The position numbers were made by a program, and so were the translations under genes. The notes under the pieces are model-generated. The model saw only the letters and a program-made list of their open reading frames with translations. It was not told the DNA's origin and ran no database searches. 33,745 bases of DNA. It comes from a virus (Duplodnaviria; Caudoviricetes). Shown one piece after another: positions 3,592-26,786 of this stretch. The stretch lies in the IMG/VR virus record IMGVR_UViG_3300037308_000012, positions 1 through 33,745 of that record; one strand, written 5' to 3'. Each line of letters begins with the position of its first letter. Position 1 is the stretch's first letter.

Positions 3592-4566
3592 TTAGTAACC
3601 AGCCATCTCTCTCTTCTTGAGAGAAGCTTCCCTGCGCTTAGATGCTCTTCTCTGCGAAATAGCTCTCTTGCGAACACCAGAAATTTGACCAATTGCCATA
3701 TTCCTTTTTGCTTGAGCAGTCAGCCTTACATATCCGCCATCAACAATCTTAAAGCCTGGTCGATGTGGCAGTTTGAGCTGCTTCTTGATGTCGTTTGAAT
3801 CTGTTGATACATGGCGGAAGGTAACAATCTTAGACACTTCAGATAATGGCTTGATATTCTCAATGGGCGTAACGCTAGAGACAAATTCATTAAACTTGCC
3901 CATTAAGCCTAGGTGAGTTGATTCGTTCATATCGTCGTCTTCTTCACTGTCATCTTCACGGTCATCCGAACTTTCGAAATCGTCTTCGCTATCGTCTTCT
4001 TCCTTAACAGCCTTCTTCTTAGAAACACACTTTTCTTGCATCTCTTCGTCATCAGACTCGTCATCGTCTTCGCTATCGTCTTCTTCCTTTTTAGTGGGTC
4101 TCTTTGACTCTTCTAAGTCTTGGTGACCCGTGAACTCGAAAACATTTTCTGAGCTCAATTCGATTGCAAAGTGAACTTCAGTTCTGCCTTCTCCACCCTC
4201 TAGATCGGTTGGGCTTTCTGATGTCACTGGCAATACTATTATGTTTTCATCGTATGATTCGACATCATCGCAATCGTCGAGATACGCAGCAAAACCATCG
4301 GCTGATTCGCCCTCAGGCACAAGAACGCCCAGCATACCTTGGTCATAGATGAACCCATGTCCACCAAAAGACTTTGCGGCAGCTTGGATAGAAGATACCA
4401 TTCTCATCTCTGGATCATCTTGCTCTACAATCTGTCTTACGATGTCTTTTTGTCGTCTATGATATGACTCTAATAGACGTCTTTTGAAAATTTCTTGAAA
4501 CTTCATGGCGTCGCCTTGTTCCAGACTTTCTGCCACCTGTGATCTAAAAGTGATCAATCGTGCCAT
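3592..4566 (-). CDS. Prohead core/internal protein, probable gp67-gp68 fusion with an acidic middle
   Basis: The only gene between gp20 and gp21. The N-terminal ~48 aa look gp67-like (LEQGDAMKFQEIFKRRL). The basic C-terminus looks gp68-like (PGFKIVDGGYVRL...RRASKRREASLKKREMAGY). Confidence 0.75.
   Translation of the reverse strand: MARLITFRSQVAESLEQGDAMKFQEIFKRRLLESYHRRQKDIVRQIVEQDDPEMRMVSSIQAAAKSFGGHGFIYDQGMLGVLVPEGESADGFAAYLDDCDDVESYDENIIVLPVTSESPTDLEGGEGRTEVHFAIELSSENVFEFTGHQDLEESKRPTKKEEDDSEDDDESDDEEMQEKCVSKKKAVKEEDDSEDDFESSDDREDDSEEDDDMNESTHLGLMGKFNEFVSSVTPIENIKPLSEVSKIVTFRHVSTDSNDIKKQLKLPHRPGFKIVDGGYVRLTAQAKRNMAIGQISGVRKRAISQRRASKRREASLKKREMAGY
3979..4089. repeat. 27-bp exact direct repeat inside the prohead core gene (encodes KEEDDSEDD)
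   Basis: ATCGTCTTCGCTATCGTCTTCTTCCTT occurs at 3979-4005 and 4063-4089. Confidence 0.9.
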
Positions 4567-9723: not shown

Positions 9724-11109
9724 TTAAGAATTCCAAATTCTGGACCTAAATACCTCATCGGCATATTCAGTACCATCATCGTAATAGCCGAACACCAACG
9801 AGTTGTCTGTTTCTCTTTCCTTCGCTTCTTTCAGCAACACATCTATACCCTTGAGAGACAAATCTTCAAACATCGTTTGAGTGGTGAGCCAAGCGAAATT
9901 AACTAATGGCATAACCAAATCATCATGTCTTTTCTTCTCTGCTTCATACGAATTGCGAACCTTTATAAAGCACGATAGTTCTTGAATGGTGTTAAAATCG
10001 ACAATTTGCAGTAAGCCTTCTTCTATCAATGTCTTGAGAGCCGAACACCCAATCATTTTAGTCTTTCGATTCATAGTAACACCAAAAGCCTCCATATTGT
10101 TGCCCGTATATCTTTCTTCTCCGCCTTTAACTTTTGAGCTTACAACATTCTCGTAATCATGTTCGTAGAACATCTCATCCGCAACAATCTTACCTACGCT
10201 GTTATTCTCTACGAGAATATGCGCTAGATTATACCTTTGAGCAATCTGTAAGATTGTCCCTGTGATCAACCAAGGACTGATGTCGTTCCTCCTAAATACA
10301 AACACTTGCTCATATGGTTTAGAGGTTATGTCTATCACGACCGCCGTGCTAAAGTCGCGACCTATGCCCTCTCCTACGTCTACGCACACGACATAGGTAT
10401 GATCTATAATGGGCTTCTTATAAAGGTAGTGATAATCTGACTCTGTAATAGGATTTTGATAGACCATCTTCTCAAGGCACTCACCAGAGATAAGCGTATC
10501 GCTGCTTCCTAAGAACTCACAAGCGTGTTCTTGTTTGAACTGAGCCAGTGAGGTGTTTCTGATAGTCTCTTTCTTCCAAGCTTCATCTCTATCAGGATGG
10601 CATTCCCAGGTAAATTTCACTGGATAGAACTCGTTCCTATTGTGTTGAGCGTCTGTGTATATCTTGTAAAATAAGTTCATTCCATTTGGAGTAGAGGTAA
10701 TGATGATCTTTGTTTTCTTTCCTGAGGCAATAACCGGATAGGTAGAGGTAAAGAACTCTACATCGTTTTGCACAAAAGCGAACTCATCCAAATAGACGCA
10801 CTGATGTGACAGAATCCCATTTGAAAAGTAGTTGTGTGTTTCTTCTACTTCTACGGGGTCAAACACCTCAACCAACTCATTCGATTTGGTTTTGAAAATA
10901 AGTACAACTTCACCATTAGTAGAAATAACTTTATCAGATTCTTTCAAATCTTTAGATTCGATGTAACCTTTAGATGTCATAATCTTGTGTTCAGGGGTCG
11001 TTTTTAACCACGATCCATCGGAAAAATATAATTCGATAATATCTTTTCTGGCAGAAACTCTAACCCCATCAAACTCTCTAAACACTCCTCCTTCTGATAA
11101 AATCTTCAT
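9724..11109 (-). CDS. gp17: Terminase large subunit, C-terminal part (Walker B plus nuclease domain), preceded by the C-fragment of a split intein
   Basis: The intein end GILSHQ is followed by CVYLDEFAFV, IITSTPNGMNLFY, QEHACEFLGS, VDVGEGIGRDFS and HDDLVM. Confidence 0.95.
   Translation of the reverse strand: MKILSEGGVFREFDGVRVSARKDIIELYFSDGSWLKTTPEHKIMTSKGYIESKDLKESDKVISTNGEVVLIFKTKSNELVEVFDPVEVEETHNYFSNGILSHQCVYLDEFAFVQNDVEFFTSTYPVIASGKKTKIIITSTPNGMNLFYKIYTDAQHNRNEFYPVKFTWECHPDRDEAWKKETIRNTSLAQFKQEHACEFLGSSDTLISGECLEKMVYQNPITESDYHYLYKKPIIDHTYVVCVDVGEGIGRDFSTAVVIDITSKPYEQVFVFRRNDISPWLITGTILQIAQRYNLAHILVENNSVGKIVADEMFYEHDYENVVSSKVKGGEERYTGNNMEAFGVTMNRKTKMIGCSALKTLIEEGLLQIVDFNTIQELSCFIKVRNSYEAEKKRHDDLVMPLVNFAWLTTQTMFEDLSLKGIDVLLKEAKERETDNSLVFGYYDDGTEYADEVFRSRIWNS
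10801..11109 (-). mobile_element. Split intein C-fragment (103 aa) containing blocks B, F and G and ending His-Gln before Cys+1
   Basis: LKTTPEHK (block B TxxH), VEVFDPVEVEETHNYFSNGILSHQ/C (blocks F and G). It has its own ATG at 11109. Confidence 0.93.
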
Positions 11110-11681
11110 AGTTTCTTTCCCACCCCATTGATGATACTTATTTTCCTTCGAGTTTTTCTGAACGTTTGATTTCTTTATGCTTCTCTGCTGTCTTTCTTAT
11201 CTTTTCGGGATTCTTATTAATTTTGTTAATATGATTCTAAGGCATCGGAAATTTTCTGATAATGATCTGATTTGTATTGTTGTTTCATAATCAACTCTTT
11301 ATTCTGCTCCCAATAAACTTTCTTCAAAGAAGACATCGAACTTTTTTCTACATCGGTCCTATTTTGCAAAAAAGCGAGTCTTTCTTCTTCATAAAGACGA
11401 GATGATATTCTTATTCCGCGAGTATTGCTCATCATAAAAAGAGCAACTGCCATTTTTGCTCTCTTTTCTCCTTCATTCATTCTAACAAGAAGTTTATGGG
11501 CAACAAAATGTTCTCTTAGAGTTAAAAGAACGGTGTTGTTTTGATCACCACCACCAAAAGATCGTGGGATGATATGATGTCTCTCATAGTAGTTCTCGTT
11601 TTTATACCTTTCTTCTGATAATGCTTTCATAATCAAACGATTATAGATTTTCTCGTATTTGTTTTCTTTTATGATCGGCAT
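11106..11681 (-). pseudogene. HNH homing endonuclease with a frameshifted NUMOD3-type tail, lying between the intein halves
   Basis: HNH core YYERHHIIPRSFGGGDQNNTVLLTLREHFVAHKLL is intact, with a possible internal start MPIIKENKY at 11681. After the stop at 11226-11228 the family-like sequence continues in the +1 frame (KINKNPEKIRKTAEKHKEIKRSEK), then in the original frame (TRRKIS...KKL*), whose TGA overlaps the ATG at 11109. Confidence 0.8.
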
Positions 11682-12341
11682 ACTATTTTTTTCTTTTTCA
11701 CAGAAATCGAACTTGTTGATTTTATACTTATCATTTTCAAAAAGTTCTTGAATAGTTATCTTTTCTACTACCCCATCATCATTCTGTATTACAATTTCTG
11801 TTTCACCTACTACACAGTTGATCGAGAAGCCACGGATACTGCTGTTTGTCGTCGGTCCTGCAAATATCTTGCTGCCATTGCTGAACTCTATTGATCCCTT
11901 GTTCCACTCGACCACTCCAGGCTTAAGCCACCAGGGAAGCAACTCATACATCATCTTCAAACGACCTAGGATTTCTCTACTCTTAGAAGCATTGTTAGCG
12001 AGGATGGCTATTGCATAATCTTTGTTAAAGATTGCTTCGTACAGTAGAAACGCGCATACGGTGATGGTCTTTCCCATTTGACGAGAAAGAGTTGCGACTG
12101 TAAACCTGTTCTGACGGAATATAGCTAGCATCTCTTTCTGAAATTCGTAAGGTTTGAAAAGGATCTTGCCTTCGTCTAATGAGATAATATAAACGTAATT
12201 GGTTAAGAAATAAACTACATCCTTCTGGCACTTCACAATCTCAGCGACTTGCTCTGGAGTGTATTGAAGTATCACACCCTTTTTCTTTAACTCTTGATTG
12301 CCTTTGTAATAAGGAGTAGGTGGACTCTGTTCGTAGTTCAT
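11226..12341 (-). CDS. gp17: Terminase large subunit, N-terminal ATPase part (175 aa) plus intein N-fragment plus in-frame HNH domain
   Basis: Motifs YKGNQELKK, YEFQKEM, Walker A SRQMGKT, ILAN...SREIL, YELLP.WL.PGV.EWNKGSIE.SNGS and SSIRG.S, then the intein start CVVGETEI at residue 176. Confidence 0.95.
   Translation of the reverse strand: MNYEQSPPTPYYKGNQELKKKGVILQYTPEQVAEIVKCQKDVVYFLTNYVYIISLDEGKILFKPYEFQKEMLAIFRQNRFTVATLSRQMGKTITVCAFLLYEAIFNKDYAIAILANNASKSREILGRLKMMYELLPWWLKPGVVEWNKGSIEFSNGSKIFAGPTTNSSIRGFSINCVVGETEIVIQNDDGVVEKITIQELFENDKYKINKFDFCEKEKNSMPIIKENKYEKIYNRLIMKALSEERYKNENYYERHHIIPRSFGGGDQNNTVLLTLREHFVAHKLLVRMNEGEKRAKMAVALFMMSNTRGIRISSRLYEEERLAFLQNRTDVEKSSMSSLKKVYWEQNKELIMKQQYKSDHYQKISDALESY
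11730..11816 (-). mobile_element. Short split intein N-fragment (block A, about 29 aa; 3' boundary approximate)
   Basis: CVVGETEIVIQNDDGVVEKITIQELFE is a typical intein block A plus the following strands. Block B is not in this ORF. Confidence 0.88.
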
Positions 12342-12776: not shown

Positions 12777-13087
12777 CTACCTCTTTTCTTCTTTCCAGGA
12801 GTCTTTAAGTTTTTGACGGTGTTCATCAGAACACGTTCTCCCGATTAGAGATTTATAAATTGCAGCAGAATGATTGTCTGAGTGGTTTCGACCTTTTCGA
12901 GTTTGACTCATTTTCTTTTCATCATCAAACATCTTACCTTTATTAGGAGATTCTCTATTTTGCATTCTTTCACTATGTCTTCGTAGTCCATCAGTCATTA
13001 GGACAGCACCTACGAGTATAACAGACTCCGATAATACTATCGATCAAGGTCTTTCTATCCGATAAGATATGCATAAGGTTGAAACAT
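12777..13087 (-). pseudogene. Decayed free-standing homing endonuclease (GIY-YIG/Seg-like N-terminus plus NUMOD3 repeats)
   Basis: AGGAG SD and ATG at 13087 give MFQPYAYLIG*KDLDR*YY, then a frameshift to GVCYTRRCCPND*WTT, recalling the PYTYLIGW....WYYGVRY...C.P.DLW family. It then joins NUMOD3-like SPNKGK..KKMSQTRKGRNHS..CSDEHRQKLK. Confidence 0.75.
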
Positions 13088-13116
13088 AATTGCTCTCCTA
13101 TAGATACCATGATGTT

Positions 13117-13124
13117 TATTTATA
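13117..13124 (-). promoter_or_regulatory. T4-type late promoter (TATAAATA)
   Basis: Exact TATAAATA overlapping the TAA stop of the LamG ORF, upstream of the endonuclease remnant, gp16 and gp17. Confidence 0.85.
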
Positions 13125-16100
13125 CAATTTCGGCACGAACTTTGCTCCTTATTATGTCGTTATAATGGTAGTCTTTATGGTCCTCTGCCACAACACTGAA
13201 CAGCGCGCTAGTGTCAAGTTCAATGAACTCATAGTACCCTGTATCTGGATCGCTTACGACTTCTGCCACAGGAGCATAACTCCAGTATTCTATGAGCACC
13301 ACCTTTCTAGACATTGGTTGACCTCCAGCATCAGTAACGGTTCCCCATATCTTGCCTTGTCCAAACCATCGTCCGTTATCAAAGTTCTTTTTCTTTGATA
13401 GCATAGTATCAACAGTTGATACTCTTGGTAATGCGGGAGGAGATAAATTACCCTCTTCTCGTATATATTGAATCATTGAATCAGAAGCGATACCATCAAA
13501 TATAGACACTTCATCGAGTTTTCCTACGAAGTTACCTAGTACGAGATTGTTATCGGGATCAACCAATTCTGGTAAGTTACTTTGAGCTTGAGCTAAAAGA
13601 GTTGTGCTTGGAATGAAATCTGTAGTATAAGAAACTACCCATTTCAGAATCCTAAAGTTAGAAATAAAACCTCTAAAACGATACTCACTAGCGCTTATTG
13701 TCTCATCGGACAATAGTCCTAAAACAGATAAACCTCCACCAAATAATGGTACAGATTCCTCATACTTCTTAACACCGTTTACGAATATTTTGAGTAGACC
13801 ATCTTCTCTTGTGATGGCGCAGTGCGTCCAAGTGTACAATAGTACCGTGTCGAGAGTGGTGAGTGTAGTTCCGTAGAGCCACTTTAGTTCAGTCCCTGCT
13901 GATACGATTCCTACTTTGTCTGTCTGTGCTATTGTGTTACCTTGACTCCAAAGGTAAATAGGTTTAGTCTCTGATCCATACTGGTGCAGTTCAAACCAGA
14001 ATTCTAAAGTAAAGTCTTCACTGCTTATAACAGATCCAGTTATGAGTTGGATATAGTCATCGTCGCCGTCAAACCAACAAGCACCTCTCTCCAAAATCGA
14101 TGACGGTCTAACAATTTGTGGCTGACCGATGAGTTTGACTGAGTTAGGCAAACTTGATGGATTTGAGAAGAATGCCAACAAGCGGGTGTTAGAAAACGAC
14201 TTGAACTTGGTTGGGAACTGTTCTGTTGGTGGAGTGAAATTTGAGAGGTAACGTGCAACGCCTCTAGTATAGCGGAATCCATCCATATAACCTATATAGC
14301 GACTTCCAGTGGAGATAGATGTTGGCGCACCCAAATAGATAGTGTCATCGAGAGCATTCGCATCGAATGGAGTTGATGCCTCTAAAATCTTAACACCATT
14401 TATAAAGACTTGTTTAAGATTGCCTCTCCTCTGCCAAACCACATGATTCCATCCCGAAAGTGAAAGAGTTGATGACGACAATGATGTCGTTCCAGGGCAT
14501 GTAAAATAAAGACTATTTGACGAGATACCTATTGAGAATCCGTAAATTTGGTTAACATCTTTCGTCATTAACCAACGTGTGGAAGAAACTGTAGGATAAA
14601 ACCAACCCTCAATTGTAAAGTCTGTTACACCGGGAACCATCGAGAAGTTAAACTCCGCGACAGACCATTGACAATTGCTTTCTATTGACGAGCTTGTCAT
14701 CGAAGGATACGTGAGATCGACGGCTACATCAAACTTTGCTTCAGCCCCTCTTAATGTTCGGACTGAATTCGGTAATGTGACATTTGAAGGAATATCTTGA
14801 ATCTTTCTGCGTCTGATTGGAAGAAGCCCTGTATGCGGTTTGGTAGATGAATACACAAACTCTGTAGGATAACGCCCTGTTCCTTTGGTGATCCTGATGT
14901 CATCAAGCCATCCCTTGAAGTACGCTGCATCCCCGCCAGCCCATTTTCCGATTAAAAGACTTGCACCAATATCAGGAATGGTGACTGAGTTGGTTGAGGT
15001 TGCAATAGAGACTCCATCAATCCAAATTGTGAAAACGTTTCCAACTCTAGTCAAGGCAAAATGATGCCATTGAGAATCGTGAACTGTTGTTCCGCTAAGA
15101 GTAATAACATTAACGCTCAAATTGTAAGCCTCGAAAGTCCATCCACTCTTGCTCGCAGAAATCTGAACATTGCTGGAACTTAAGTAATGCGAGTAAACGA
15201 ATTGAGAACCTGCTGTATCACTGTAGATCGTATGTGGTAGAATTCTAAACTTGTACCAGAATTCTATGGTAAAATCTCCTGTTCCATAGTTCCAGTCATC
15301 ACTATCTGCTAGAGAGAGATAACCTGTAGTTCCATCGAATTGTGCGCTTGCTGTTTCAAATCTCTTAGTTGAGGTCACCGTTGTGACAGTCCCATTGACA
15401 GTCACCGTCTTGTTTGAGTTAGAAGAATCTGTAAACGTCGTACCACCATCAGTACCATCACAATTTAAAAGGAGCATCACGTTGTTGGCATAAGTATCAC
15501 CAACCAATGTCTTCTCTGCCCATGTCATTCCATACCTTACAACACCACGAGTAAGTCTAACATCGTCGATGTTGCCATAGAATGATTCGAGAGCAGAGTT
15601 GTTGGCTCCAATAGACACTTTTGTTTTGTAAAGGACTAATTGGCTGTTTTCTCTTAGAGAAACGAAATTTAATGGCATAGGATATGTAAACTCACTCACA
15701 CTTGATCTTATGGTGTGACTGGTAGTTCCTGTAAACCTAGAGGCTCCAGCAAATAATAGTCCAGTGAGGTTTGAGTATGCAGGATTGGCTTCTGTTACGG
15801 GATCACCACTGGCTTGCCACACCCCGTTCTTGCTAAACCATATCTTGCCATTCTTAACAGCGACTCCTATGACGTCATTCGCTGTCCAGGTAGACCCGTA
15901 GGTTGCTCCTATTGCATTGTTAAACTTTTGAGCAGTTCCTCCTAGATATCCCCAACTATCCAAGCTACTTCCAACATAATAATTTATTGGATTAAGTGAT
16001 ATCGCTGTAACTCCTACGAATTGCTGATTGGAAGTGTGTGTTGTAGTAAAGACAATCTCAAAGTATGTTCCTACGCTAGACTGAGAATTGAAATAAGATG

Positions 16101-17001
16101 TAGATATGGTAGATTGCCATGCGTTGCTTATCGTACAAGCTGCTGTCTTGTTACTGTTTGATAGAGTGTAGCCCGAGCCAATCTTATCTATAGACCAAAT
16201 AACTTCTGGTTTTACTATGCTCTTTAGGACTCCATTCAGATATGATTTAAAGTAACCGTTCTCTCTTGTGAAAGCAACATGACTCCAAGCAGAGTTAGGG
16301 AGAGCCGTTACAGTGTTAATATTAAGCTCATAACCACTTGTTCTTGAATCCTGAAGATACACAGCACAAGGGTTTGTTGTTCCTGAGTTATTCATAGCCA
16401 TACAGAACCCACCCGCAGTCTGATATTGCTCTGTCTCTATGATTCTGCCATATGTTTGCGAGGAATATCCGCCGTTGATCGGATAAACCCACGCTTCTAT
16501 GGTGAAGTCATCGACTAGGACTGCCACATCACCAGGCATAGACGTGTTGTAACGGATGGCATCTCCATTGCCATCGAATGAGGCATAAGAGCCTCCAATC
16601 ACTTTACCCGCAATAATGCCTCCCTCAAAGGATAGGGCATTGCAAGCGATAGACTTGTCTCTAATCTGATAGTCTTGGTTGATATCAAGGAATAACTTAA
16701 CATTGGAATTTCTGTACGGATAGTTCGTGCTGAGAGAGTAAGCAGCAGTAGGTACCGAGAATGGCTCAGTGTACATCGCCCTGCCTTTAACTATTCGTAC
16801 TTCGTCGATGTAGCCGATAAAATCAGTAAACGTAGTTCCGTACTTGGTTCCATCGAAGCAATCACCTATAGAAACACTAACGTCTTTCCATTGGGTTGGT
16901 CTGAACTTTGTTCCAGTTCTAAAGTTTCTTGGTGCCAATGACGCTTGAGCATCAATAGCACCGTTAGTCCAGAGAGTCCACCAATCATTCCTTCTTGTCA
17001 C
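13120..17001 (-). CDS. LamG/ConA-like repeat tail fibre or adhesin, C-terminal segment (frame open up to 17091; probably a frameshifted continuation of the upstream ORF)
   Basis: Four DFT(I/L)E.W LamG cores, one SPRY-like domain, and a C-terminal beta domain (GKIWGTVTDAGGQPMSRKVVL...SDPDTGYYEF). The GTG at 17001 falls mid-motif, in WYHVAVTR. Confidence 0.85.
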   Translation of the reverse strand: MTRRNDWWTLWTNGAIDAQASLAPRNFRTGTKFRPTQWKDVSVSIGDCFDGTKYGTTFTDFIGYIDEVRIVKGRAMYTEPFSVPTAAYSLSTNYPYRNSNVKLFLDINQDYQIRDKSIACNALSFEGGIIAGKVIGGSYASFDGNGDAIRYNTSMPGDVAVLVDDFTIEAWVYPINGGYSSQTYGRIIETEQYQTAGGFCMAMNNSGTTNPCAVYLQDSRTSGYELNINTVTALPNSAWSHVAFTRENGYFKSYLNGVLKSIVKPEVIWSIDKIGSGYTLSNSNKTAACTISNAWQSTISTSYFNSQSSVGTYFEIVFTTTHTSNQQFVGVTAISLNPINYYVGSSLDSWGYLGGTAQKFNNAIGATYGSTWTANDVIGVAVKNGKIWFSKNGVWQASGDPVTEANPAYSNLTGLLFAGASRFTGTTSHTIRSSVSEFTYPMPLNFVSLRENSQLVLYKTKVSIGANNSALESFYGNIDDVRLTRGVVRYGMTWAEKTLVGDTYANNVMLLLNCDGTDGGTTFTDSSNSNKTVTVNGTVTTVTSTKRFETASAQFDGTTGYLSLADSDDWNYGTGDFTIEFWYKFRILPHTIYSDTAGSQFVYSHYLSSSNVQISASKSGWTFEAYNLSVNVITLSGTTVHDSQWHHFALTRVGNVFTIWIDGVSIATSTNSVTIPDIGASLLIGKWAGGDAAYFKGWLDDIRITKGTGRYPTEFVYSSTKPHTGLLPIRRRKIQDIPSNVTLPNSVRTLRGAEAKFDVAVDLTYPSMTSSSIESNCQWSVAEFNFSMVPGVTDFTIEGWFYPTVSSTRWLMTKDVNQIYGFSIGISSNSLYFTCPGTTSLSSSTLSLSGWNHVVWQRRGNLKQVFINGVKILEASTPFDANALDDTIYLGAPTSISTGSRYIGYMDGFRYTRGVARYLSNFTPPTEQFPTKFKSFSNTRLLAFFSNPSSLPNSVKLIGQPQIVRPSSILERGACWFDGDDDYIQLITGSVISSEDFTLEFWFELHQYGSETKPIYLWSQGNTIAQTDKVGIVSAGTELKWLYGTTLTTLDTVLLYTWTHCAITREDGLLKIFVNGVKKYEESVPLFGGGLSVLGLLSDETISASEYRFRGFISNFRILKWVVSYTTDFIPSTTLLAQAQSNLPELVDPDNNLVLGNFVGKLDEVSIFDGIASDSMIQYIREEGNLSPPALPRVSTVDTMLSKKKNFDNGRWFGQGKIWGTVTDAGGQPMSRKVVLIEYWSYAPVAEVVSDPDTGYYEFIELDTSALFSVVAEDHKDYHYNDIIRSKVRAEIV

Positions 17002-17020
17002 TGCGACATGATACCAAGTA

Positions 17021-18775
17021 TTAGCAGCAACGGTTGTCGCAGTTCCAGTGAGTAGAATAGTTCCGTGGGCTATAAGGTTCCCAATAAAAAACTAATCGAT
17101 TGGATGCGTTAACCATTATTATAAACCAAGGACCATTAACTACTTGATTCCACATTGCGAGAATAGGTCTTTGAGCACCAATGGAATCTAACCTAAACCA
17201 GCACTCTGCTGTAAAGTCTCCCTCACCCAGATTGAGTGATTCATGTGGATTGATTTGCACCCCACAACCAGCAGTACCGCTCAGATAGAGAGAACTTCCA
17301 CCAAACTTAGACTGAGTGGTAGAGATCTTGGCACCTAGTGTTCCTGTCACAGTGTGGTTCCATCGAGAACTATCAGAGAAGACATAGGTTGAATCCGCAC
17401 CATCGAAGTGTAACAGCAATGATGTTTGTTCGTATTCGAGATTGATTGCATCAGGTACAGGAGCAGTAGGTACAGACACCGAGGTGGTGTACTTCGCAGT
17501 GTTCTGAGTAAGTTGAATCTCACTGAGTTGACCATGGAAGTATTCGGCATTAGACAAATTACGCCCAATGAGTAAATTAGCACTTTCAGCGACGGTGATA
17601 GCACTGTTTACCGTAGAGCCTGCCTGTGAGCCATCGACAAATAGTTTCCACGAGTTTGTATCAGATGCGTTTCTTACGATTGCAACATGATGCCACCCTG
17701 TTGAGAGAGTACCTGAAGTCAGTTCTACGTCCCATCCCGCCGTATTGTCACCGAACTTAGCATAGAGCTTGGTGTCGGTGTCAGTATAGATGTTCATTCC
17801 GGTTAGAGAATCCGATTCACGCTTATCGAAAATTGTCATCTTAGCATCGTAATCAGGCAGATACATCCAAAACTCGAGAGTAAAAGTATTGCCCAGTGTG
17901 ATGTTTGGCGTATTTGTGATAACGATTGCGTCATTGACACCGTCGAATGAGATCGATGGGTAGTTGTGCTTGAAATGGCTTGAAAGTATCTTGGCGTTGC
18001 CTACGAATGTTGTACCATTAACATCCGAATCGTCCCAGGGTCCCATATAAGATGAGTTATTAAAGTGATCCATCCCCACTTGCAATGCAAGCCTGTCTGC
18101 ATAGGGATCTCTTTCTGATGTAAAACTGTCTCCTCTGAGCAACAAGCTTACATCATCGAAGTACTCATCTGCGATGTAGTCACTACGGATAGGAACGGAG
18201 AATGACGCTGTCCAGCTTTCTTCCGTTCTAAATCTAACAGCATCCATCATTCCTGCGAATAAATTTGCTCCCAGTCTTGCACCGACCTGGGTAAAAGTTC
18301 TATCAGGAGCCACAAACGATTCATAGGTTGCTTCTAAAGATCCATTGAGATAAGCTTTACATATTGCGCCGTTTCTTACCAGCGCAACATGGTGCCACAT
18401 CTTAGGGATTACTGTAGTCGTACCTGCTGTTTCTACCGAGTTGTTGACAATAGTAAGCTTTTGGTTCTTGACAGAGAGACTAGTATCTCCTGCAGAACCA
18501 CTTACTGCTTGTGACAAGATTACTTGCTCTACGTTTTCAATAGAGCTAAACCACACCCAGAGGTCGGCTGTAAAGGTCGTACCTATAAGCAACGGCTCAG
18601 TAATAACGATATAGTCTGTTGTCCCATTGAGTTTCAAACAAGTGTGATTGATCTTTCTTGTGCCTTCTATGACAACAGGATTTCCGAACACCGTGTTTAC
18701 GAATTCGTTAGTCGATTGAAGCTGAGCGGGTGTGGCTGCCCCCATCTCTGCGACAGGCGGCGTAAAGTTAGCCAT
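17021..18775 (-). CDS. LamG/ConA-like repeat protein, middle segment
   Basis: Cores TFTADLW, TFTLEFW and DFTAECW. The ATG at 18775 has GAGGAG 6 nt upstream and overlaps the previous ORF end. The last ~15 aa appear to be out of frame. Confidence 0.8.
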   Translation of the reverse strand: MANFTPPVAEMGAATPAQLQSTNEFVNTVFGNPVVIEGTRKINHTCLKLNGTTDYIVITEPLLIGTTFTADLWVWFSSIENVEQVILSQAVSGSAGDTSLSVKNQKLTIVNNSVETAGTTTVIPKMWHHVALVRNGAICKAYLNGSLEATYESFVAPDRTFTQVGARLGANLFAGMMDAVRFRTEESWTASFSVPIRSDYIADEYFDDVSLLLRGDSFTSERDPYADRLALQVGMDHFNNSSYMGPWDDSDVNGTTFVGNAKILSSHFKHNYPSISFDGVNDAIVITNTPNITLGNTFTLEFWMYLPDYDAKMTIFDKRESDSLTGMNIYTDTDTKLYAKFGDNTAGWDVELTSGTLSTGWHHVAIVRNASDTNSWKLFVDGSQAGSTVNSAITVAESANLLIGRNLSNAEYFHGQLSEIQLTQNTAKYTTSVSVPTAPVPDAINLEYEQTSLLLHFDGADSTYVFSDSSRWNHTVTGTLGAKISTTQSKFGGSSLYLSGTAGCGVQINPHESLNLGEGDFTAECWFRLDSIGAQRPILAMWNQVVNGPWFIIMVNASNRLVFYWEPYSPRNYSTHWNCDNRCC

Positions 18776-21700
18776 AGATTGCTCCTCTAGTGATTCTGAT
18801 ATCGTCAAATGCTATGTTTCCTGCTCTCCAGGCATTAATGTTGCCTTCTCCCATGATACCGTTATTGAAGTTGTATCCGCCGATGTTAAGTGGGTATGTA
18901 GTATAAACATTGCAATTTATCAGACTATTGTTTCCATAATTGGCTATGTTATAGAAAGTCATCGTTTGCTCTACTCCATCCTGATACAGTTTGATGATAT
19001 GATCTTTACAGGTTACAGCAATATGAGTCCAATCTAGTGTAGGTATAGTGACGGTTCCTTTTTTATAGTAGGCGGCTCCCGCACCACCTAAGGAAGAGTT
19101 ACCTGCTCTGATACCAACCAAACCATCGGCTTCTATGAGAATAGAAAATCCAACTCTTAATGCAGTTTCATCTCCGACGCTGCTCGTAGGATTACCAAAT
19201 ACAATGAGTGGGAGAAAAGTAGTGGGAGATTGATACAACTTCACCCAGAGTTCAATCGTAAAGTCAATCGCTGACGGGTAACAAGAACTAGTCAATGTCT
19301 GTTGTCTAGAGAGATGCAACTTAGGAACTTCTAAGTGATAATTTCCGTTGAGGTATATAGATTTTGTTGCGAATGGAGAATCATTGATGATGGCTGGTTC
19401 TACTGCTCCGTATATAGAAATTAAATTCTTGCAATCATCAATCATATTGTTGCATCTCAATTGAAGCATTGTAGAGTTAGAAGTTCCATCAAATAAAATC
19501 TCTGAATTCTTGTATATCTGCTCGATCACACTAAAGTTTGAATAAGAGTCCAAAGAGCCATCAATTAGTATCTCAACCAAATAAGCAGAAGCTAGATTGA
19601 CTGTAACTTGATGAGTTACGCCATCATTGACAAATGTATCGCTTGTTGATACGACTGTTCCTCCCCCATAGAGGTTAAATTCAGCTTGAATCTTACCACT
19701 CTGCAAGGATATTTTATAGGATCCTTGCTTCTCTATGATTGTTCCAGAAGAACTTGTTGTGTTAATGAAGAAGTTGAACGATAATGCTTTCTTTCCTGCA
19801 ACGTTCTGTGACGGTCCTGTGCAATAGCCTCCATCGAATGCAATACACCCATCCTTATTCGCATTATACGGCACCAATGTTGTCTGATTGAGATCGATGT
19901 CTGAAGGATTAACCTGGCTAAGATCCCATTCGCCAGTACAGTCTGCGATAGTGGTTCCAGTGTCCCCTAGCGTATAGTGACTGAGGATTGGAGGTGAGAA
20001 TGAAAGCACTGACTTACGATAGAAATCGATCAAAAAGTAATCTAACGAATCAGTGGGGGGAATGAATGAACCGACATATTTAGCATATCCACGCACAATC
20101 TGAACACCCTTCATGTATCCGTAGAAGTAGGCATAGGTGTCAGAAGAACCAATATTGAGATAGTTAGATCCCCACGATGCCATTCTCAAAGAACCAGTAC
20201 CTATATTGTATGTTCCAACAGCAGAGCTATTCAGATAGAATGTAATCGTCTCCTTAAAACGGACAATGGCAATGTGATACCAAGTGTATGCCGATGTGGC
20301 AGAAGTAATGATATTTCCCCAGTCCGAACCATTTCTCGTAATATAAAATCCAATGGTGTTATCTATTGCACGTTCTACTAGGATTGTTGTATACCCTGCC
20401 GCTGATCTTGTTGATATTATCGATCTTGCCGTACCAAGATCAAGGAAGTATACCCACGCCTCTATAGTGAAGTCTTCGTACTCGATCCACTCATCAGGTC
20501 CCTTCTCAATCTGAATTTGAGAGTTGCCATTGAAGTAGGCTACCATCCTGTCTTGTTTCTTAATTTCATTCAGAGTGATTAACTCATCGGTTATCACGAC
20601 ATTCTTATTGATATGCATGGTAGAGTTTGGGACTAAGTCTATGCAATCGAATGAGTTGTTTGGAATAGTCTCAGTTTGCAGTGTAAGGTTACGCTTCACT
20701 CCATCACCCTGACTAATCACAAGATCATCAATGTATCCCTTAAAGCCATTCGTACCATCGCCACCTATGAGCAATGAAGTTGGAGTTACGAAATAGTAAT
20801 AATCCCCGCTGTCTTTATATGGGGATGTTGGTAGAGTGAATGATTTGGAGTAATGACACGATCTACTAACCCTTAACTCGTCGATGTAACCGTTGAAAAA
20901 CTTAGCGTTCCCACCCGATGTTTCTTGGCAACCAATTCTCATAACTGGAGAGCCTGCACCGAATGATGCAGGCATATTTTGAGATGCTATCAGCACGCCA
21001 TCCAAAAACATCCTAACAATCGAGTTTTCTCTGGTGACTGCAAAGTGGTACCAAGTGTTTTTTGAGAGCGCAGCAGGAAAGGTATAACTGATCATCTCGG
21101 CATCGGCCGCATACTCATTTGATAACCAACATTTTGTTCCCGTTGTGGTTGCATTTCCGCTCAAGACAAGTTTCAAGTAGCCTACAATATACACGAGTCC
21201 TGCTTCTCTTATTCCATTAGTTGAAACAGCCGAATCGCCCTCTATGTTGAACCAGAACTCTATAGTGAAGTTACCTGTATCGAATCCGAAGTCTGATGAA
21301 GATGCACTCGAAATATAATCGCCATTACCGTCAAAATAAGCACTAGCTCCCCCGAACTTGCTGTTGGCTGTCCTGATTCTCGCATTGCCGGTGGCAGTGT
21401 AGGACTTAGGTATTGAACCGTTATCGGTGAACGTCGTGGATCCATCAGCACCATTAAAATGGAGTTGCGATACATCATAGAATCTCGTTTGGGCTCTTCC
21501 TCTATCGAGAGAACAAGAGCCATAACACACTCCATCGACAAAGACACTGAAGTGCGTTGCTTTCTTCTGTACCTGAAGATGCTTAAACGAAGTAGAGAAG
21601 TCTGTCTTTGTCAACGACGTGGTTACCCATTCATTGAGAGGATCGCCTATGTTTACCATCAACTTATGACTGTCAGAGACTCCGCCAAACTTGATGTTGA

Positions 21701-24700
21701 TTTGTCTGACTGATTCAGAATCGACTTGCTTAAATACAACTTGCTCTCCGCCTGAGGTCTCTGTTGTCTTGATCCACATCTCTATGAGAAAGTCTTTGTC
21801 AAAATGCTTGAAGTTACTGAGTGGACTTATCGTGATGTAGTCGCTAGAGCCTGTAAAGTATGCACTGCTTGCACCGAACTTCTTGTCAGAGGTTGAGATT
21901 ACGGCATTGCCATTTATTGTATAGGTGTGACCTACAGAGTCAAAAAAGCCACTCTCGTTGAACGATGACTTGAGTAGTGGAGTCTTAGAGAACGTGGTGA
22001 GAGCATAGCCCTTGTTAGAATACGAGCTGTCTGGACTCTGGATATAGCGCATTACAAAGTCTTGGAGATAGCCTTGATAGAATTCTGCGGTAGTATAATA
22101 ACATCCCAGATAACAAGTTCTTCCATTCGCTGGCGGATATGGCAACTCCGTCAATCCTCCGGTAGTATCGTAAACACCATTGAGGTAGAGCACAACCGAA
22201 TACCCTATTTTCTGAATCTTGACATGCGTCCAGGTGTTGGCTGTGATTGAGGTAGACGATACTACAGACATTGCTGTGGTTGGTGATGAAGCCTTGGCTA
22301 AGAAAACTCCGAGTTTTGACGCAGATGTGATTTGAATACCATGACTGAAGTGAACACTTGCCGAACCATCCACCGATAGAATATCTCTATTAGACCCTCC
22401 TACGGAAGTAGGATACATCCAGAACTCGATAACCCAGTCTCTCTGGAAGTTGAGTAATAAAGAGTTAGGCTGGGTTGATATTGGAATGAATGTAATCCTA
22501 GAAGAGGTTCCATTGAAGTACGCTGGGAAGCCGTTACGAGGTAATCTAGCAACGGTACTTGAATATGTCATGTTGGTTGCAGTTGTAGGATACGCCATTA
22601 GACCGATATCAGGGTATGACGGTGAAGCGTTCCCATTGATACCCGTCAGAGGAAAGTGAAGAACCTCATAGTCTGCACTTGGATTTCCAGAGAACGCGGG
22701 CAATGGCTGAGATGGAGGCGTAAACGCTGCGGTGTATCTCGCGTATCCTTTTGTCAATCTGAAATCGTCAATATAACCTTTGAAATAGCGAGTGCTATCG
22801 TTATCAGATTTTCCGATGTAGGGAGTCGTTGATGCGGTCCAGTTCGTTGTAAGTGAGTTTTCGTAACCCAGTTGTCCATTAACGAACACTCTAAGTGTGC
22901 CATTAGATCTACACCAAGCGACATGAGTCCAGGTGTCTGGAGATATTGCAATAGATGAAGTTGCTTGAGAAGTCCCATCCCATAGACAAGGAGCAAGATC
23001 GGAATTCAGAAGGAATACAACGAAAGCAGGAGTAAAACTAAATCCACCAAAAATTAGATTGTCATAAGATGACCCGCCACCGGGAGCAGAGCCTATATGA
23101 TACACCCAACACTCGATAGTGAAGTCATTCGTTCCAAAAGTAAAGTCTGAGCTTGCAGGAGTAGTGATGTAGGATGTCATTCCATCGAAGTAGCCGCTTA
23201 CTCCACCCCACTTGTATTGAGAGGTAGATAGAGTTACTCCACCGTTTAGAGTCAGAGTATGACCTTTCTCGTCATAGATTGCTCTCGGTGTTCGATTCAT
23301 GTGCATCAAGAGAGATGTATTAGTCCAGTAAGAGTCTGTCTCGTTAGGCAAGACTTCTGTAGGTGCGGTGAAGTTGGCAATATAACGTGCAACGCCTTTG
23401 GTTATTCTAACATCTTGTATGTAACCTGTTGCATAATTGACTGATGTTGACTTACCTCTTCCGATTCTAAACTCTCCAGTATCGTTTATATTATATGAGT
23501 CAGAGAATGAATAGGCCTCAGTTCCATTTAGAAACAGACGGTTTGTGGAACCTGAACGAGTCCAAGCAACATGATTCCAAGCATTGAGCGTTGGCGCTGT
23601 TGTCGAAATGTAATTCGTAGATCCCATATTAGCATAGAGGTAACCTGTGGTTACCCCTAGTCCGAAAAAGAATCCGTCGGATCCCGATGTTCCTTTAGAT
23701 ACAATAACCCATTGCATCGTTGCAAATGTGGTTGGATATATCCACGCCTCAATCGTAAAATCACTTGTACCTAATGATAGATCTGTTGCGTGCGGGGTTG
23801 ACAGATAATCACCACTGCCATCAAAATAAGCGCAATCTCCACCAAACTTGCTGATGGTCGAAAAGACGAGGGTGGTGTTACCGTATGCCGTTATCGCATG
23901 TCCTTTCTCATCAAACCATTCAGTGATGCACAAATAGTTGTTGAATCGTAAGTGCATTCCTGAATAGAGTGAACCTAAGGTATCACCATCTCCATAGTCA
24001 AGATGAGACGCAGTAGGAGGAGTGAATGCGTCAACATAACGCGCTACGTTCTTAGTAATCCTTAAGTCATCTAGATAGCCTGAGTAACCGTACAGCCTAT
24101 TAACGCTATCTCCACCAATAACCATCGGCAAGGTATTTTGAGCAGAGATAAAACTACATAAAGATCCATATCCCGTCCATCCTATGACTCCGTCTAAGAA
24201 GCCTTTCCAGGTATTGCCCATTCTAACAACAGCAAAATGGTGCCAGGTGTTAAGTGATACCGTTCCAAAGGTTTGATTAAGGAACATCTCCGTGTTCACT
24301 GCATTGGTCTTATAGGAAGTGAACTGAATACTTGTCCCGCTCAATCGAATCTCATAGGCTGGATACGGATAAGTCGTAGTATTGTCGGGTTTTCTGATGA
24401 TGATTTGCGTGCCTGTTACGCTTTCGGGTCTAATCCATCCCTCTATCGTAAAGTCTCCAATAAAGTTGATGTCTTCTCTATGCGGAGTGGTGAGATAGCC
24501 CGTGCCTTTGAATCTTGCAGAGCGTCCACCAAACTTACTTTGAAGTGAGCTGATCTCTACATTCCCTATCGGGGTAAAGTCATGTAGTCTCATTGTGTCA
24601 TTAAACTGATTCATCTCGTCAAACGGAATCAATAGAGCAACGTTGCTCCAGTAGGTATCAGAAGAATCCGTTGGAAACGGCTCAGTTGGTACGGAGAAGT

Positions 24701-26786
24701 TGGTTGAGTATCTTGCAACACCCTTAGTCAATCTGAAGTTGTCTAAGTAGGCGTTCAATGGATACGATGAAGCATCTCTACAAACTCCAAACCACAGGGG
24801 TGCGGAATTGATGTAAATGGTGCCAGTCCACACGGTTGATGCCTCTAACGACCCATTTACCCAAAGTCCAAACGTGTTATCTGAGTTTCTCGTGACTGCG
24901 ATATGGTACCATGTTCCAATCACAAGAGATGTCTGCGACTGTAGAGTTACTTCCCATCCTGTTGTGGAGCTATCTCCAATCCAAACCCCCATTTTATTAG
25001 GTGTGCCTGTTGTTTGAATTACAAAGCCAAAAGAGTTAAAAGAAGATCTCCAATCAATAAGGGTTTGATTAGCAGAACTATAGATATGTTTGTACCAAAG
25101 CTCTATAGTAAATGGTCCCGTCGAAATATCATAGTCTGCATTATAAGTGACGGCTAATCTATCACCGCCAGAAGTCCCATCCCAGTAAGCGCATGTTCCA
25201 TCGAACTTACCACCAGAAGACAGTGAGACGTCTACGGTTAGTGTGATTGGGTGCGCTTTAAGATCGTTAGTCAATCCGAAGAACGGATTCTTTGCTGTGT
25301 CGTTAAACTGCATTATCAATGAAGTGTCTGCTAGATATGGATCGCCAGGATTTGCTTCCGCCGTGGGCGGGGTGAAGTCTCCAAAATATCGGCAGTCTTT
25401 TGTGATGCGAATATTTGCCATCCAACCTACAAATGATCTCAAATAGCCAGTAAAGTTATCTGATCCAATCTTAAGCGGGAGTGTAGATGTAAATGATGCA
25501 ACAGGAGTATTCTGTAAGACATCAATAGATTTGAGATGCTTCCCATCCAGATAGGCAGAAACAAAACTCATATTGCTCTCTTTACAGAGTGCTAAATGAT
25601 GCCATGTACCCTTTTCTATAGGAGCCAAGAACGTGTGAAACCAGTCGACGGTCGAGGTTTGATACTCTATCTCTATACCAGCTCCTGTATTCGTGCTTCC
25701 TGATACACGAATAGCCATGCCATTCGTAAAGCTTCCTGAATTTGGCCAACCAAAAGCAATCAAGCATCCTGATCTAAAAGAACTTGACGATACGGGTGAG
25801 TTCCTGTCTATCTTGAACCAGAACTCTATAGTGAATGCAGTGAGCTGATTGAATAAATCAAAGTACCTATGATAAGGTACCGTAAGAAATGTTGCACCAT
25901 TGAAATACAGAGCTGGCTCGCCGAATGGACCTGCAGTGTAATCGAGTCTAGGTCCCTGTCCACCTGCCGAGTAGCAGTCGCCTAAAATCTGATCATAGAT
26001 TCGGGGACCTTTTGGAGTGATCTCAGGAATGGTTTCGGGAGGTGTAAAGTCACCTGTATAGCGAGACACTCCGCGAGTGATACGGATATCGTTAGCGTAT
26101 CCTATTAAGTCATTGCTTCCTGTGGAGGTTGCACCAATGCGAATGCCTGAGGTGTTAGTGACAGGAGTCAGCCAATAAAACGATAAAGCGGATACTCCGT
26201 TGATGTAAACAGTGCACGTGTTATTGACAGAACAAACTGCAAGATGAAACCAGGTGTTCTGAGTGATAGAGTTGTTTGGAGTGTAATGATATACGGATCC
26301 TGCTGCGCCATCCCACACAAAAACTTGCCAGTTCGTGATTTCGACACCAATACTCCAATTTATGTTTCCACTACTAGAACCTCTAAAATCGAAGAGATAG
26401 GATTGCCCTGTCGCATTGCCCACATTAAACCATCCCTCAACAGTGAAGTCTACGCCTTGTAGATTTAGTTCGCTGGAGTATGCAAGATTAAAAAAAGAGT
26501 CACCGCCTTCAAAGTAAATTGCTGGATTACCATTTCTAGTCACAGATGATACTAATGGCGTTCCAGTTTTTGTAATCAGAACGCCACAGTCATCAGAGAA
26601 GAAGTAGCTTGATGTAGGTTGATCAAGTCTCAGGTTAAATGTGACATAAGGAGCATAGGCATCAAGAGCTGTCGATCTCTGATTGATTAGATTAGTGTTG
26701 AGGACGACTGAGTTAGCCAGAGGATCATTGCTGGTTGATTTAGATTTATCGAAGTTGAATATATGCGTAATTTTATTAGTTATCAT
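18768..26786 (-). CDS. Giant LamG/ConA-like repeat tail fibre or adhesin, N-terminal segment (2672 aa)
   Basis: About 12 repeats of YFDG..DY, DFTIE.W, W.H.A..R, ..NG, IG...F.GYIDD.R.TKG.ARY...F..P. ATGA overlap with the upstream gene. Confidence 0.92.
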   Translation of the reverse strand: MITNKITHIFNFDKSKSTSNDPLANSVVLNTNLINQRSTALDAYAPYVTFNLRLDQPTSSYFFSDDCGVLITKTGTPLVSSVTRNGNPAIYFEGGDSFFNLAYSSELNLQGVDFTVEGWFNVGNATGQSYLFDFRGSSSGNINWSIGVEITNWQVFVWDGAAGSVYHYTPNNSITQNTWFHLAVCSVNNTCTVYINGVSALSFYWLTPVTNTSGIRIGATSTGSNDLIGYANDIRITRGVSRYTGDFTPPETIPEITPKGPRIYDQILGDCYSAGGQGPRLDYTAGPFGEPALYFNGATFLTVPYHRYFDLFNQLTAFTIEFWFKIDRNSPVSSSSFRSGCLIAFGWPNSGSFTNGMAIRVSGSTNTGAGIEIEYQTSTVDWFHTFLAPIEKGTWHHLALCKESNMSFVSAYLDGKHLKSIDVLQNTPVASFTSTLPLKIGSDNFTGYLRSFVGWMANIRITKDCRYFGDFTPPTAEANPGDPYLADTSLIMQFNDTAKNPFFGLTNDLKAHPITLTVDVSLSSGGKFDGTCAYWDGTSGGDRLAVTYNADYDISTGPFTIELWYKHIYSSANQTLIDWRSSFNSFGFVIQTTGTPNKMGVWIGDSSTTGWEVTLQSQTSLVIGTWYHIAVTRNSDNTFGLWVNGSLEASTVWTGTIYINSAPLWFGVCRDASSYPLNAYLDNFRLTKGVARYSTNFSVPTEPFPTDSSDTYWSNVALLIPFDEMNQFNDTMRLHDFTPIGNVEISSLQSKFGGRSARFKGTGYLTTPHREDINFIGDFTIEGWIRPESVTGTQIIIRKPDNTTTYPYPAYEIRLSGTSIQFTSYKTNAVNTEMFLNQTFGTVSLNTWHHFAVVRMGNTWKGFLDGVIGWTGYGSLCSFISAQNTLPMVIGGDSVNRLYGYSGYLDDLRITKNVARYVDAFTPPTASHLDYGDGDTLGSLYSGMHLRFNNYLCITEWFDEKGHAITAYGNTTLVFSTISKFGGDCAYFDGSGDYLSTPHATDLSLGTSDFTIEAWIYPTTFATMQWVIVSKGTSGSDGFFFGLGVTTGYLYANMGSTNYISTTAPTLNAWNHVAWTRSGSTNRLFLNGTEAYSFSDSYNINDTGEFRIGRGKSTSVNYATGYIQDVRITKGVARYIANFTAPTEVLPNETDSYWTNTSLLMHMNRTPRAIYDEKGHTLTLNGGVTLSTSQYKWGGVSGYFDGMTSYITTPASSDFTFGTNDFTIECWVYHIGSAPGGGSSYDNLIFGGFSFTPAFVVFLLNSDLAPCLWDGTSQATSSIAISPDTWTHVAWCRSNGTLRVFVNGQLGYENSLTTNWTASTTPYIGKSDNDSTRYFKGYIDDFRLTKGYARYTAAFTPPSQPLPAFSGNPSADYEVLHFPLTGINGNASPSYPDIGLMAYPTTATNMTYSSTVARLPRNGFPAYFNGTSSRITFIPISTQPNSLLLNFQRDWVIEFWMYPTSVGGSNRDILSVDGSASVHFSHGIQITSASKLGVFLAKASSPTTAMSVVSSTSITANTWTHVKIQKIGYSVVLYLNGVYDTTGGLTELPYPPANGRTCYLGCYYTTAEFYQGYLQDFVMRYIQSPDSSYSNKGYALTTFSKTPLLKSSFNESGFFDSVGHTYTINGNAVISTSDKKFGASSAYFTGSSDYITISPLSNFKHFDKDFLIEMWIKTTETSGGEQVVFKQVDSESVRQINIKFGGVSDSHKLMVNIGDPLNEWVTTSLTKTDFSTSFKHLQVQKKATHFSVFVDGVCYGSCSLDRGRAQTRFYDVSQLHFNGADGSTTFTDNGSIPKSYTATGNARIRTANSKFGGASAYFDGNGDYISSASSSDFGFDTGNFTIEFWFNIEGDSAVSTNGIREAGLVYIVGYLKLVLSGNATTTGTKCWLSNEYAADAEMISYTFPAALSKNTWYHFAVTRENSIVRMFLDGVLIASQNMPASFGAGSPVMRIGCQETSGGNAKFFNGYIDELRVSRSCHYSKSFTLPTSPYKDSGDYYYFVTPTSLLIGGDGTNGFKGYIDDLVISQGDGVKRNLTLQTETIPNNSFDCIDLVPNSTMHINKNVVITDELITLNEIKKQDRMVAYFNGNSQIQIEKGPDEWIEYEDFTIEAWVYFLDLGTARSIISTRSAAGYTTILVERAIDNTIGFYITRNGSDWGNIITSATSAYTWYHIAIVRFKETITFYLNSSAVGTYNIGTGSLRMASWGSNYLNIGSSDTYAYFYGYMKGVQIVRGYAKYVGSFIPPTDSLDYFLIDFYRKSVLSFSPPILSHYTLGDTGTTIADCTGEWDLSQVNPSDIDLNQTTLVPYNANKDGCIAFDGGYCTGPSQNVAGKKALSFNFFINTTSSSGTIIEKQGSYKISLQSGKIQAEFNLYGGGTVVSTSDTFVNDGVTHQVTVNLASAYLVEILIDGSLDSYSNFSVIEQIYKNSEILFDGTSNSTMLQLRCNNMIDDCKNLISIYGAVEPAIINDSPFATKSIYLNGNYHLEVPKLHLSRQQTLTSSCYPSAIDFTIELWVKLYQSPTTFLPLIVFGNPTSSVGDETALRVGFSILIEADGLVGIRAGNSSLGGAGAAYYKKGTVTIPTLDWTHIAVTCKDHIIKLYQDGVEQTMTFYNIANYGNNSLINCNVYTTYPLNIGGYNFNNGIMGEGNINAWRAGNIAFDDIRITRGAIYG

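Follow-up and report, generated by a model that had tools for sequence, protein, structure and literature searches.

LamG array of a T4-like phage

The DNA analysed here is the 33,745 nt IMG/VR record IMGVR_UViG_3300037308_000012 (hereafter the window), a segment of a T4-like phage with genes for gp23 capsid protein, portal, prohead protease, sheath, tube and terminase. The nearest cultured capsids are those of the Variovorax phage V45v66 and the Acidovorax phage ACP17 (62 %). The minus strand carries a 13.7 kb array of LamG domains in three frames (26786–18768, 18775–17021 and 17091–13120), flanked on one side by a head–tail adaptor gene and a 424 amino acid (aa) gene and on the other by the small terminase gene. 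A first-pass annotation had proposed that one LamG domain of this array, here termed domain X, is split by a very large insertion and has its halves in different ORFs (open reading frames). The genes and the parts of domain X are as follows.

18768..26786 (−), chain 1 gene, 2,672 aa: LamG units U1–U10, the front half of X and unit A; orthologous to P0004 (2,684 aa) of a sister phage found in the same samples.
17021..18775 (−), start of chain 2, 584 aa in the window genome: the tail arm of unit A, units B and C and the front of D; matches the start of the sister protein P0009 (1,881 aa).
13120..17091 (−), rest of chain 2: units D (back) to H, SPRY, the closing part of X and a C-terminal immunoglobulin-like (Ig-like) domain.
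13123..13374 (−), the C-terminal Ig-like domain, a possible anchor: weak CarboxypepD_reg match below the cut-off; 53 % identical to the end of the homologue P0017.
19530..20033 (−), front half of split domain X (LamG, YW subtype), with 'ILIDG' as its last strand: YW profile columns 22–177; Laminin_G_2, 27.8 bits (cut-off 22.9).
13450..13578 (−), closing hairpin and helix of X: YW columns 196–219; aligns to P0017 from residue 161.
13581..19529 (−), insert of ~1,983 codons: LamG units A–H and SPRY.

Two pieces of one LamG domain

The motifs from which the split had first been read lie on the minus strand where they had been reported (PPILSHY at 19994, LSFNFF at 19784, VNDGVTHQ at 19631, EILIDGS at 19574, NNLVLGNF at 13551 and YIREEG at 13467). 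Domain X starts ~13 residues earlier than first noted, with a helix before PPILSHY (~20033). Two LamG profiles were built from IMG/VR domains picked by motif, one for the YW subtype (50 of 68 candidates) and one for the LL subtype (24 of 37); the 18 YW and 13 LL candidates left out wanted the closing motif. The X front half stops at YW column 177 and the orphan piece fills columns 196–219, which no other unit in the window reaches. Subtype preference was scored with forced alignments and 100 shuffles, and agreed with the earlier claim that both pieces are of the YW subtype, unlike the other repeats. The X front half was the only one of 23 opening segments in the window to prefer YW over LL with a positive score (11.7 vs 5.5 bits, z 6.5), and the orphan was the only one of 19 closing segments to prefer YW (21.5 vs 10.8 bits, z 8.3). 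Profile scans and alignment to P0017 likewise placed the proposed eight LamG units and SPRY between the halves, across 1,983 codons.

The X front half was identical to P0017, a compact homologue, at 63 of 178 columns. Joined halves scored 270 against P0017; without a closing segment the front half scored 214, and with any of 17 decoy closings it reached 236 at most; against a second compact homologue, P0024, the joined halves scored 162 and the decoys at most 151. The true join was the only one to reach profile column 217. By these alignments, the opened and closed pieces belong to one domain. A reading of NNLVLG as a permuted opening strand of unit H was ruled out, the same short hairpin being native in both P0017 and P0024. 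The P0017 strand also aligns to the spare strand ILFDG, so that a duplicated relic is conceivable. No direct or inverted repeats of at least 20 nt, such as a mobile element might leave, were found at the insert ends (19530/13580), where old short ones would escape detection.

Compact and one-chain homologues

A scan of the X front half against 1.84 billion representatives gave 12 hits. The shorter homologues with adjacent halves, which the first-pass annotation had set as a check, were found: P0017 (313 aa) is an intact X with the same Ig-like end (Laminin_G_3 match of 31.3 bits, columns 2–139), and P0024 (531 aa) is one LamG, an intact X and an Ig-like domain. The flanks of the insert are thus two parts of a domain that is contiguous in P0017 and P0024, an A1-B-A2 arrangement. 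Three one-chain giants (P0018, P0019 and P0026) have both halves ~1,965 residues apart with the same order of units, the closing part in P0026 being identified by eye. P0019 comprises 4,094 aa in one open frame in L254, with the front half at residues 1820–1977 and the closing part at 3949–3981. Another relative, P0016, is in frame across the first break in the array (junction 1) and continues as far as unit G, where its record stops. An X-type split was absent from most of the giant tandem LamG proteins in the relatives scan. No relative of the front half was found in the metagenome contigs searched, none of P0002 in the viral contigs searched, and none of the front half or P0017 among the cultured phages searched. 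P0001 and P0002 (616 and 615 aa) are apparently cut short by contig edges rather than by a further gene split.

The AlphaFold2 model of the sandwich is that of P0017 (mean predicted local distance difference test (pLDDT) 81.8). The model matches LamG-type jelly rolls, and its matches in the PDB to clostridial toxin binding domains (~15 % identical) show a shared jelly roll only. P0017 is predicted to fold as one complete beta-sandwich with the insertion site in loop 162–173, between strands 155–161 and 174–178 (blocks with pLDDT 91–94). The insert consists of whole domains and falls at this predicted loop. An unsplit stretch from L254, running from a spare strand through units A and B to spare strand c, was modelled from 60 alignment rows (shallow for unit A); four rows covering unit A only were taken out of an alignment as misaligned.

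Further nests in the same loop

Domain X is not the only interrupted unit in the array, which also contains strands without a local partner.

20682..21995 (−), nest U8[U9]: complete LamG U9 (20808–21485) in the same loop of U8; YW columns 60–175, then 60–204, then 180–204.
15523..16722 (−), nest E[SPRY]: SPRY (15661–16197) in the same loop of unit E, by profile matches.
19485..19523 (−), spare opening-type strand after the X front half: LL 6.5 bits, z 5.1; disordered in the L254 model.
18128..18175 (−), spare opening strand 'c', lying after unit B and before unit C: 13.5 bits; the sister has an identical copy (100 %); low confidence in the model.
26685..26786 (−), two spare opening-like strands at the N terminus, which might close U2 and U10: weak scores, by eye; 51 % identical in P0019.

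U8 and unit E are interrupted at the same place (columns 175–179), around U9 and SPRY respectively, and this is conserved in relatives; U8[U9] is kept in the sister, P0015, P0016, P0019, P0026 and L235. The fold recurs within itself in U8[U9], and nesting passes beyond one level in X[...E[SPRY]...]. Two levels are present and a third is possible, depending on how the spare strands pair. Four cores (U2, U10, B and G) have no local opening strand, and the spare opening-like strands also number four, with scores that are good for c, moderate for the strand after X and weak for the N-terminal pair. In the L254 model, the structural match of unit B weakly takes in strand c, a weak lean towards c closing B. 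A nested pairing of the four strands with the four cores would be tidy and is possible but unproven, because permuted units occur in the family and the model gave low-confidence strands.

The number of tandem units between U3 and U7 (window 22017–25346) differs among relatives, with two fewer in P0019 and extra units in P0015 and L235, the nests themselves being constant. P0030 has an apparent nested fibre of another kind, in which residues 1248–1856 hold four consecutive LamG opening segments among kelch-like repeats, with the cores later. Circularly permuted LL-type LamG domains (columns 35–226 then 12–47) occur in many short phage proteins (L115, L123–L125, L136, L139 and others).

A conserved gene split at junction 1

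18768..18787 (−), junction 1: GAGGAG ribosome-binding site followed by the ATG at 18775, which overlaps the stop of chain 1 (ATGGCTAA); the same in the sister contig and in L235/L253.

The first-pass annotation had left it conditional whether the frameshifts in the array are real. Its two breaks fared differently: that at 18775 is a real gene fission, conserved and provided with a start signal of its own, judged by its recurrence across lineages, and that at ~17070 (junction 2, below) is a mid-domain shift of the window lineage alone. Junction 1 has six bases from AGGAG to ATG, and the overlapping stop and start with a ribosome-binding site, as in a coupled gene pair, are conserved. It was covered without gaps in runs X2 and X3 (X2 perhaps being the source sample), was present in a 2017 groundwater run, and was unchanged in the sister phage (P0004 and P0009). 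The end of chain 1 (RGxIYG stop) is identical in the window, the sister, L235/L253 and P0015, the next gene of P0015 lying beyond what was seen. The split form occurs in four of eight giant family members, which a branch with 99/99 support separates from the rest in a midpoint-rooted tree that has one long branch. With the break common to these four members, the X halves therefore lie on two proteins. In the unsplit L254 model, the arm of unit A that is severed at junction 1 is ordered (pLDDT 88) and lies within the unit A structural match.

Identities of the two X halves after the split are 71 % and 73 % to the sister (units 49–94 %), and 52 % and 53 % to L235. By this measure the halves are as conserved as intact units. 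It is unlikely that the halves no longer meet, each chain having become a separate adhesin with a half-domain relic. Such an outcome would accord with the breakage of chain 2 upstream of the closing half in two of the three split lineages where it was seen, but the halves match intact units in conservation across lineages that are ~52 % identical, and chain 1 is without an Ig-like end of its own. Somewhat less credible still is ribosomal frameshifting across junction 1, by which one chain would still be made and X would close in cis. The sequence of the junction is conserved and a Shine–Dalgarno motif stands ahead of the stop; however, the 6 nt between this motif and an in-frame ATG are the distance usual for initiation, and a move from GGC to GCT would probably give poor tRNA re-pairing. 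An origin of the two pieces as unrelated remnants of different domains, or of the breaks as assembly errors, is highly improbable. Although the closing piece is short and the hidden Markov model bit score of the joined halves is not unique, compact and one-chain homologues exist and junction 1 recurs in four lineages and the 2017 groundwater run; P0017 and P0019 have already largely refuted this explanation.

A lineage-specific break at junction 2

17021..17091 (−), junction 2: +1 frameshift inside unit D, in the window lineage only and in a segment variable between strains; no strong ribosome-binding site at downstream starts.

Junction 2 was gap-free in runs X1 and X2 (both possible sources); X3 had no coverage there. 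It was absent from all seven relatives covering the site (sister, L235, L253, P0016, P0018, P0019 and P0026), which have an open frame there and not the conserved shift site of a programmed frameshift. The split form of the family therefore consists of two chains, not three. A T6 slip was ruled out by the sister sequence, which agrees with the upstream frame up to and including YW..YS. Junction 2 may stop production of the closing half, or of the second protein, in the window genome.

Odds slightly better than even are given to the fibre being off or decaying in the window genome, with junction 2 a null allele and X never closed there, which is compatible with the explanation preferred for the family. 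This would fit the absence of the mid-domain shift from the seven relatives' sequences, a window unitig one base longer than that of the sister (383 vs 382), the lack of a strong start downstream of junction 2 and the presence of the allele in two runs. Against this, the 1,320 codons downstream are open and 70–81 % identical to the sister, and the change would therefore be recent or leaky; both runs with the allele are perhaps the source sample, and contigs hide rare alleles. L235 (12885–12961) and L253 (12240–12316), records that are 99.97 % identical, have a mid-domain frameshift of independent origin, which falls in unit H and thus upstream of the closing part of X.

The front of unit D (window 17022–17352) is highly variable, and loose contig ends in X2 and X3 show alleles beyond those of the window and the sister. 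It is possibly a receptor-binding hot spot.

Proposed origin and assembly

The preferred explanation, with a probability of roughly 0.7, is that the array encodes a giant, probably virion-borne LamG protein in which a small host domain accommodates ~1,980 residues (eight LamG units and SPRY) in a single predicted surface loop, and that a later gene split put the host halves on two proteins that are likely to re-join by strand complementation. The insertion, the recursion in the same loop and the conserved fission with a coupled start are demonstrated by the comparisons above. Completion of X in trans is likely, and we infer trans closure for both X and unit A because both halves have been conserved undiminished.

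A compact LamG and Ig-like ancestor would have grown through successive in-frame insertions of LamG units, which have their two ends near each other, with fission at junction 1 coming later than the insertion. Chain 2 would be made by translational coupling and would bind chain 1 at both ends, its N-terminal arm completing unit A and its C-terminal hairpin and helix completing domain X, so that a loop of lectin-like domains is closed. Attachment of the assembly to the virion is probably through the Ig-like end, with avidity probably allowing the array to bind glycans on the host surface. The frameshift of the window lineage probably truncates chain 2 in the window genome.

Several observations weigh against this explanation. 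By profile bit score alone the true join does not stand out (47.8 bits vs 48.2–50.5 for five decoys). P0017 and P0024 are without genomic context and a tree of X only leaves their position unfixed, so that the compact form coming first is only inferred. In the L254 model both spare strands have pLDDT <50. Of the three split lineages with chain 2 seen, two (the window and L235/L253) have a mid-domain frameshift ahead of the closing half and no strong internal start; the fibre is therefore often broken and may be dispensable.

A more extensive scheme is tentative and rather doubtful. The whole 4,560-residue array would be a three-domain scaffold (LamG-X-Ig, as in the 531 aa P0024) with two ~2,000-residue loops arising from seven nested insertions at two hot-spot loops, and the four spare strands would close the four opening-less units. 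Three strand-complementation sites would then let chain 2 grip chain 1, and by bridging two chain 1 molecules it could give a daisy-chain lectin net on the virion.

Genomic setting of the array

The context of the array, T4-like head and tail genes with matches to PHROGs families of virion, baseplate and unknown function, accords with a giant LamG protein that is probably virion-borne. Promoter and terminator counts in the window were lower than in shuffles, and no RNA data sets carrying the array sequence were listed. Contig depth in run X1 was doubled over window 20506–23306 and 24487–25803, and the window and P0002 have identical sequence up to 20506. Blocks identical to the window thus apparently occur in the sister phage, which suggests that the fibre gene recombined recently.

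Between the fibre gene and the small terminase gene, a stop-riddled stretch with an AGGAG start (window 12830–13090, minus strand) resembles, by eye, a decayed homing endonuclease. The large terminase gene (window 9724–12341, minus strand) lies in two frames with the break within an intein, gap-free in runs X1 and X2. ORF 1 holds ~35 intein residues followed by an HNH-like stretch, and the remaining intein opens ORF 2; the terminase of L235 is unbroken. This has the look of a naturally split intein, and a literature search found nothing on it.

Comparison with known systems

The natural series from compact to one-chain giant to two-chain giant bears on how far a beta-sandwich may be separated in sequence and yet close. 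The last strands of X would come ~2,000 residues later or from another protein, making delayed domain closure testable and offering a natural split beta-sandwich tag. It also suggests that phage adhesins can be looped or branched rather than linear, and domain annotation miscounts nested LamG fibres. In the donor-strand complementation of pili, a beta-sandwich is completed by a strand from another chain. The proposed donor in domain X differs in being a hairpin and helix derived from fission of a nested gene.

In an ECOD survey, the median domain insert is 115 residues, the insert is smaller than the host in 77 % of events, and A1-B-A2 and nested insertions resemble domain X in having a discontinuous host around complete guests, with recursion occurring (PMC13114784). 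Domain X differs from these in size, with ~1,980 residues and nine domains in a ~210-residue host (~17 times the median), and in having its host cut across two genes. The deepest case is Si3 of cyanobacterial RNA polymerase, an experimentally solved region of 640–690 aa with eight sandwich-barrel hybrid motifs and up to six levels (PMC10895346, PMC13114784). Like the LamG array, it has repeats of one fold folded over themselves and domains built from distant sequence, and it forms an elongated arm; the X insert is three times longer, shallower, of the LamG fold and known here from sequence (PMC10895346, PMC13114784). Evolved Dit proteins of siphophages also have carbohydrate-binding modules in loops of a virion protein's lectin-like domain (PMC7291167). 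They carry one or two modules, and the available portion of that paper describes neither recursion nor a gene split (PMC7291167); homology to Dit is not claimed. The same folds as in the LamG array are reported for virion proteins with LamG3 and SPRY domains from jumbo and T4-like phages (PMC7824862).

Among cultured relatives, the ACP17 protein ASD50350.1 combines a YW-type LamG with a similar Ig-like end after it; this protein and the BUDD protein USV40906.1 are encoded by short separate genes, unlike the giant array. No description of an X-type split nested architecture was found in the open-licence literature, supplements being outside the search. Nested insertion is already known, and domain X is an unusually large variant of it.

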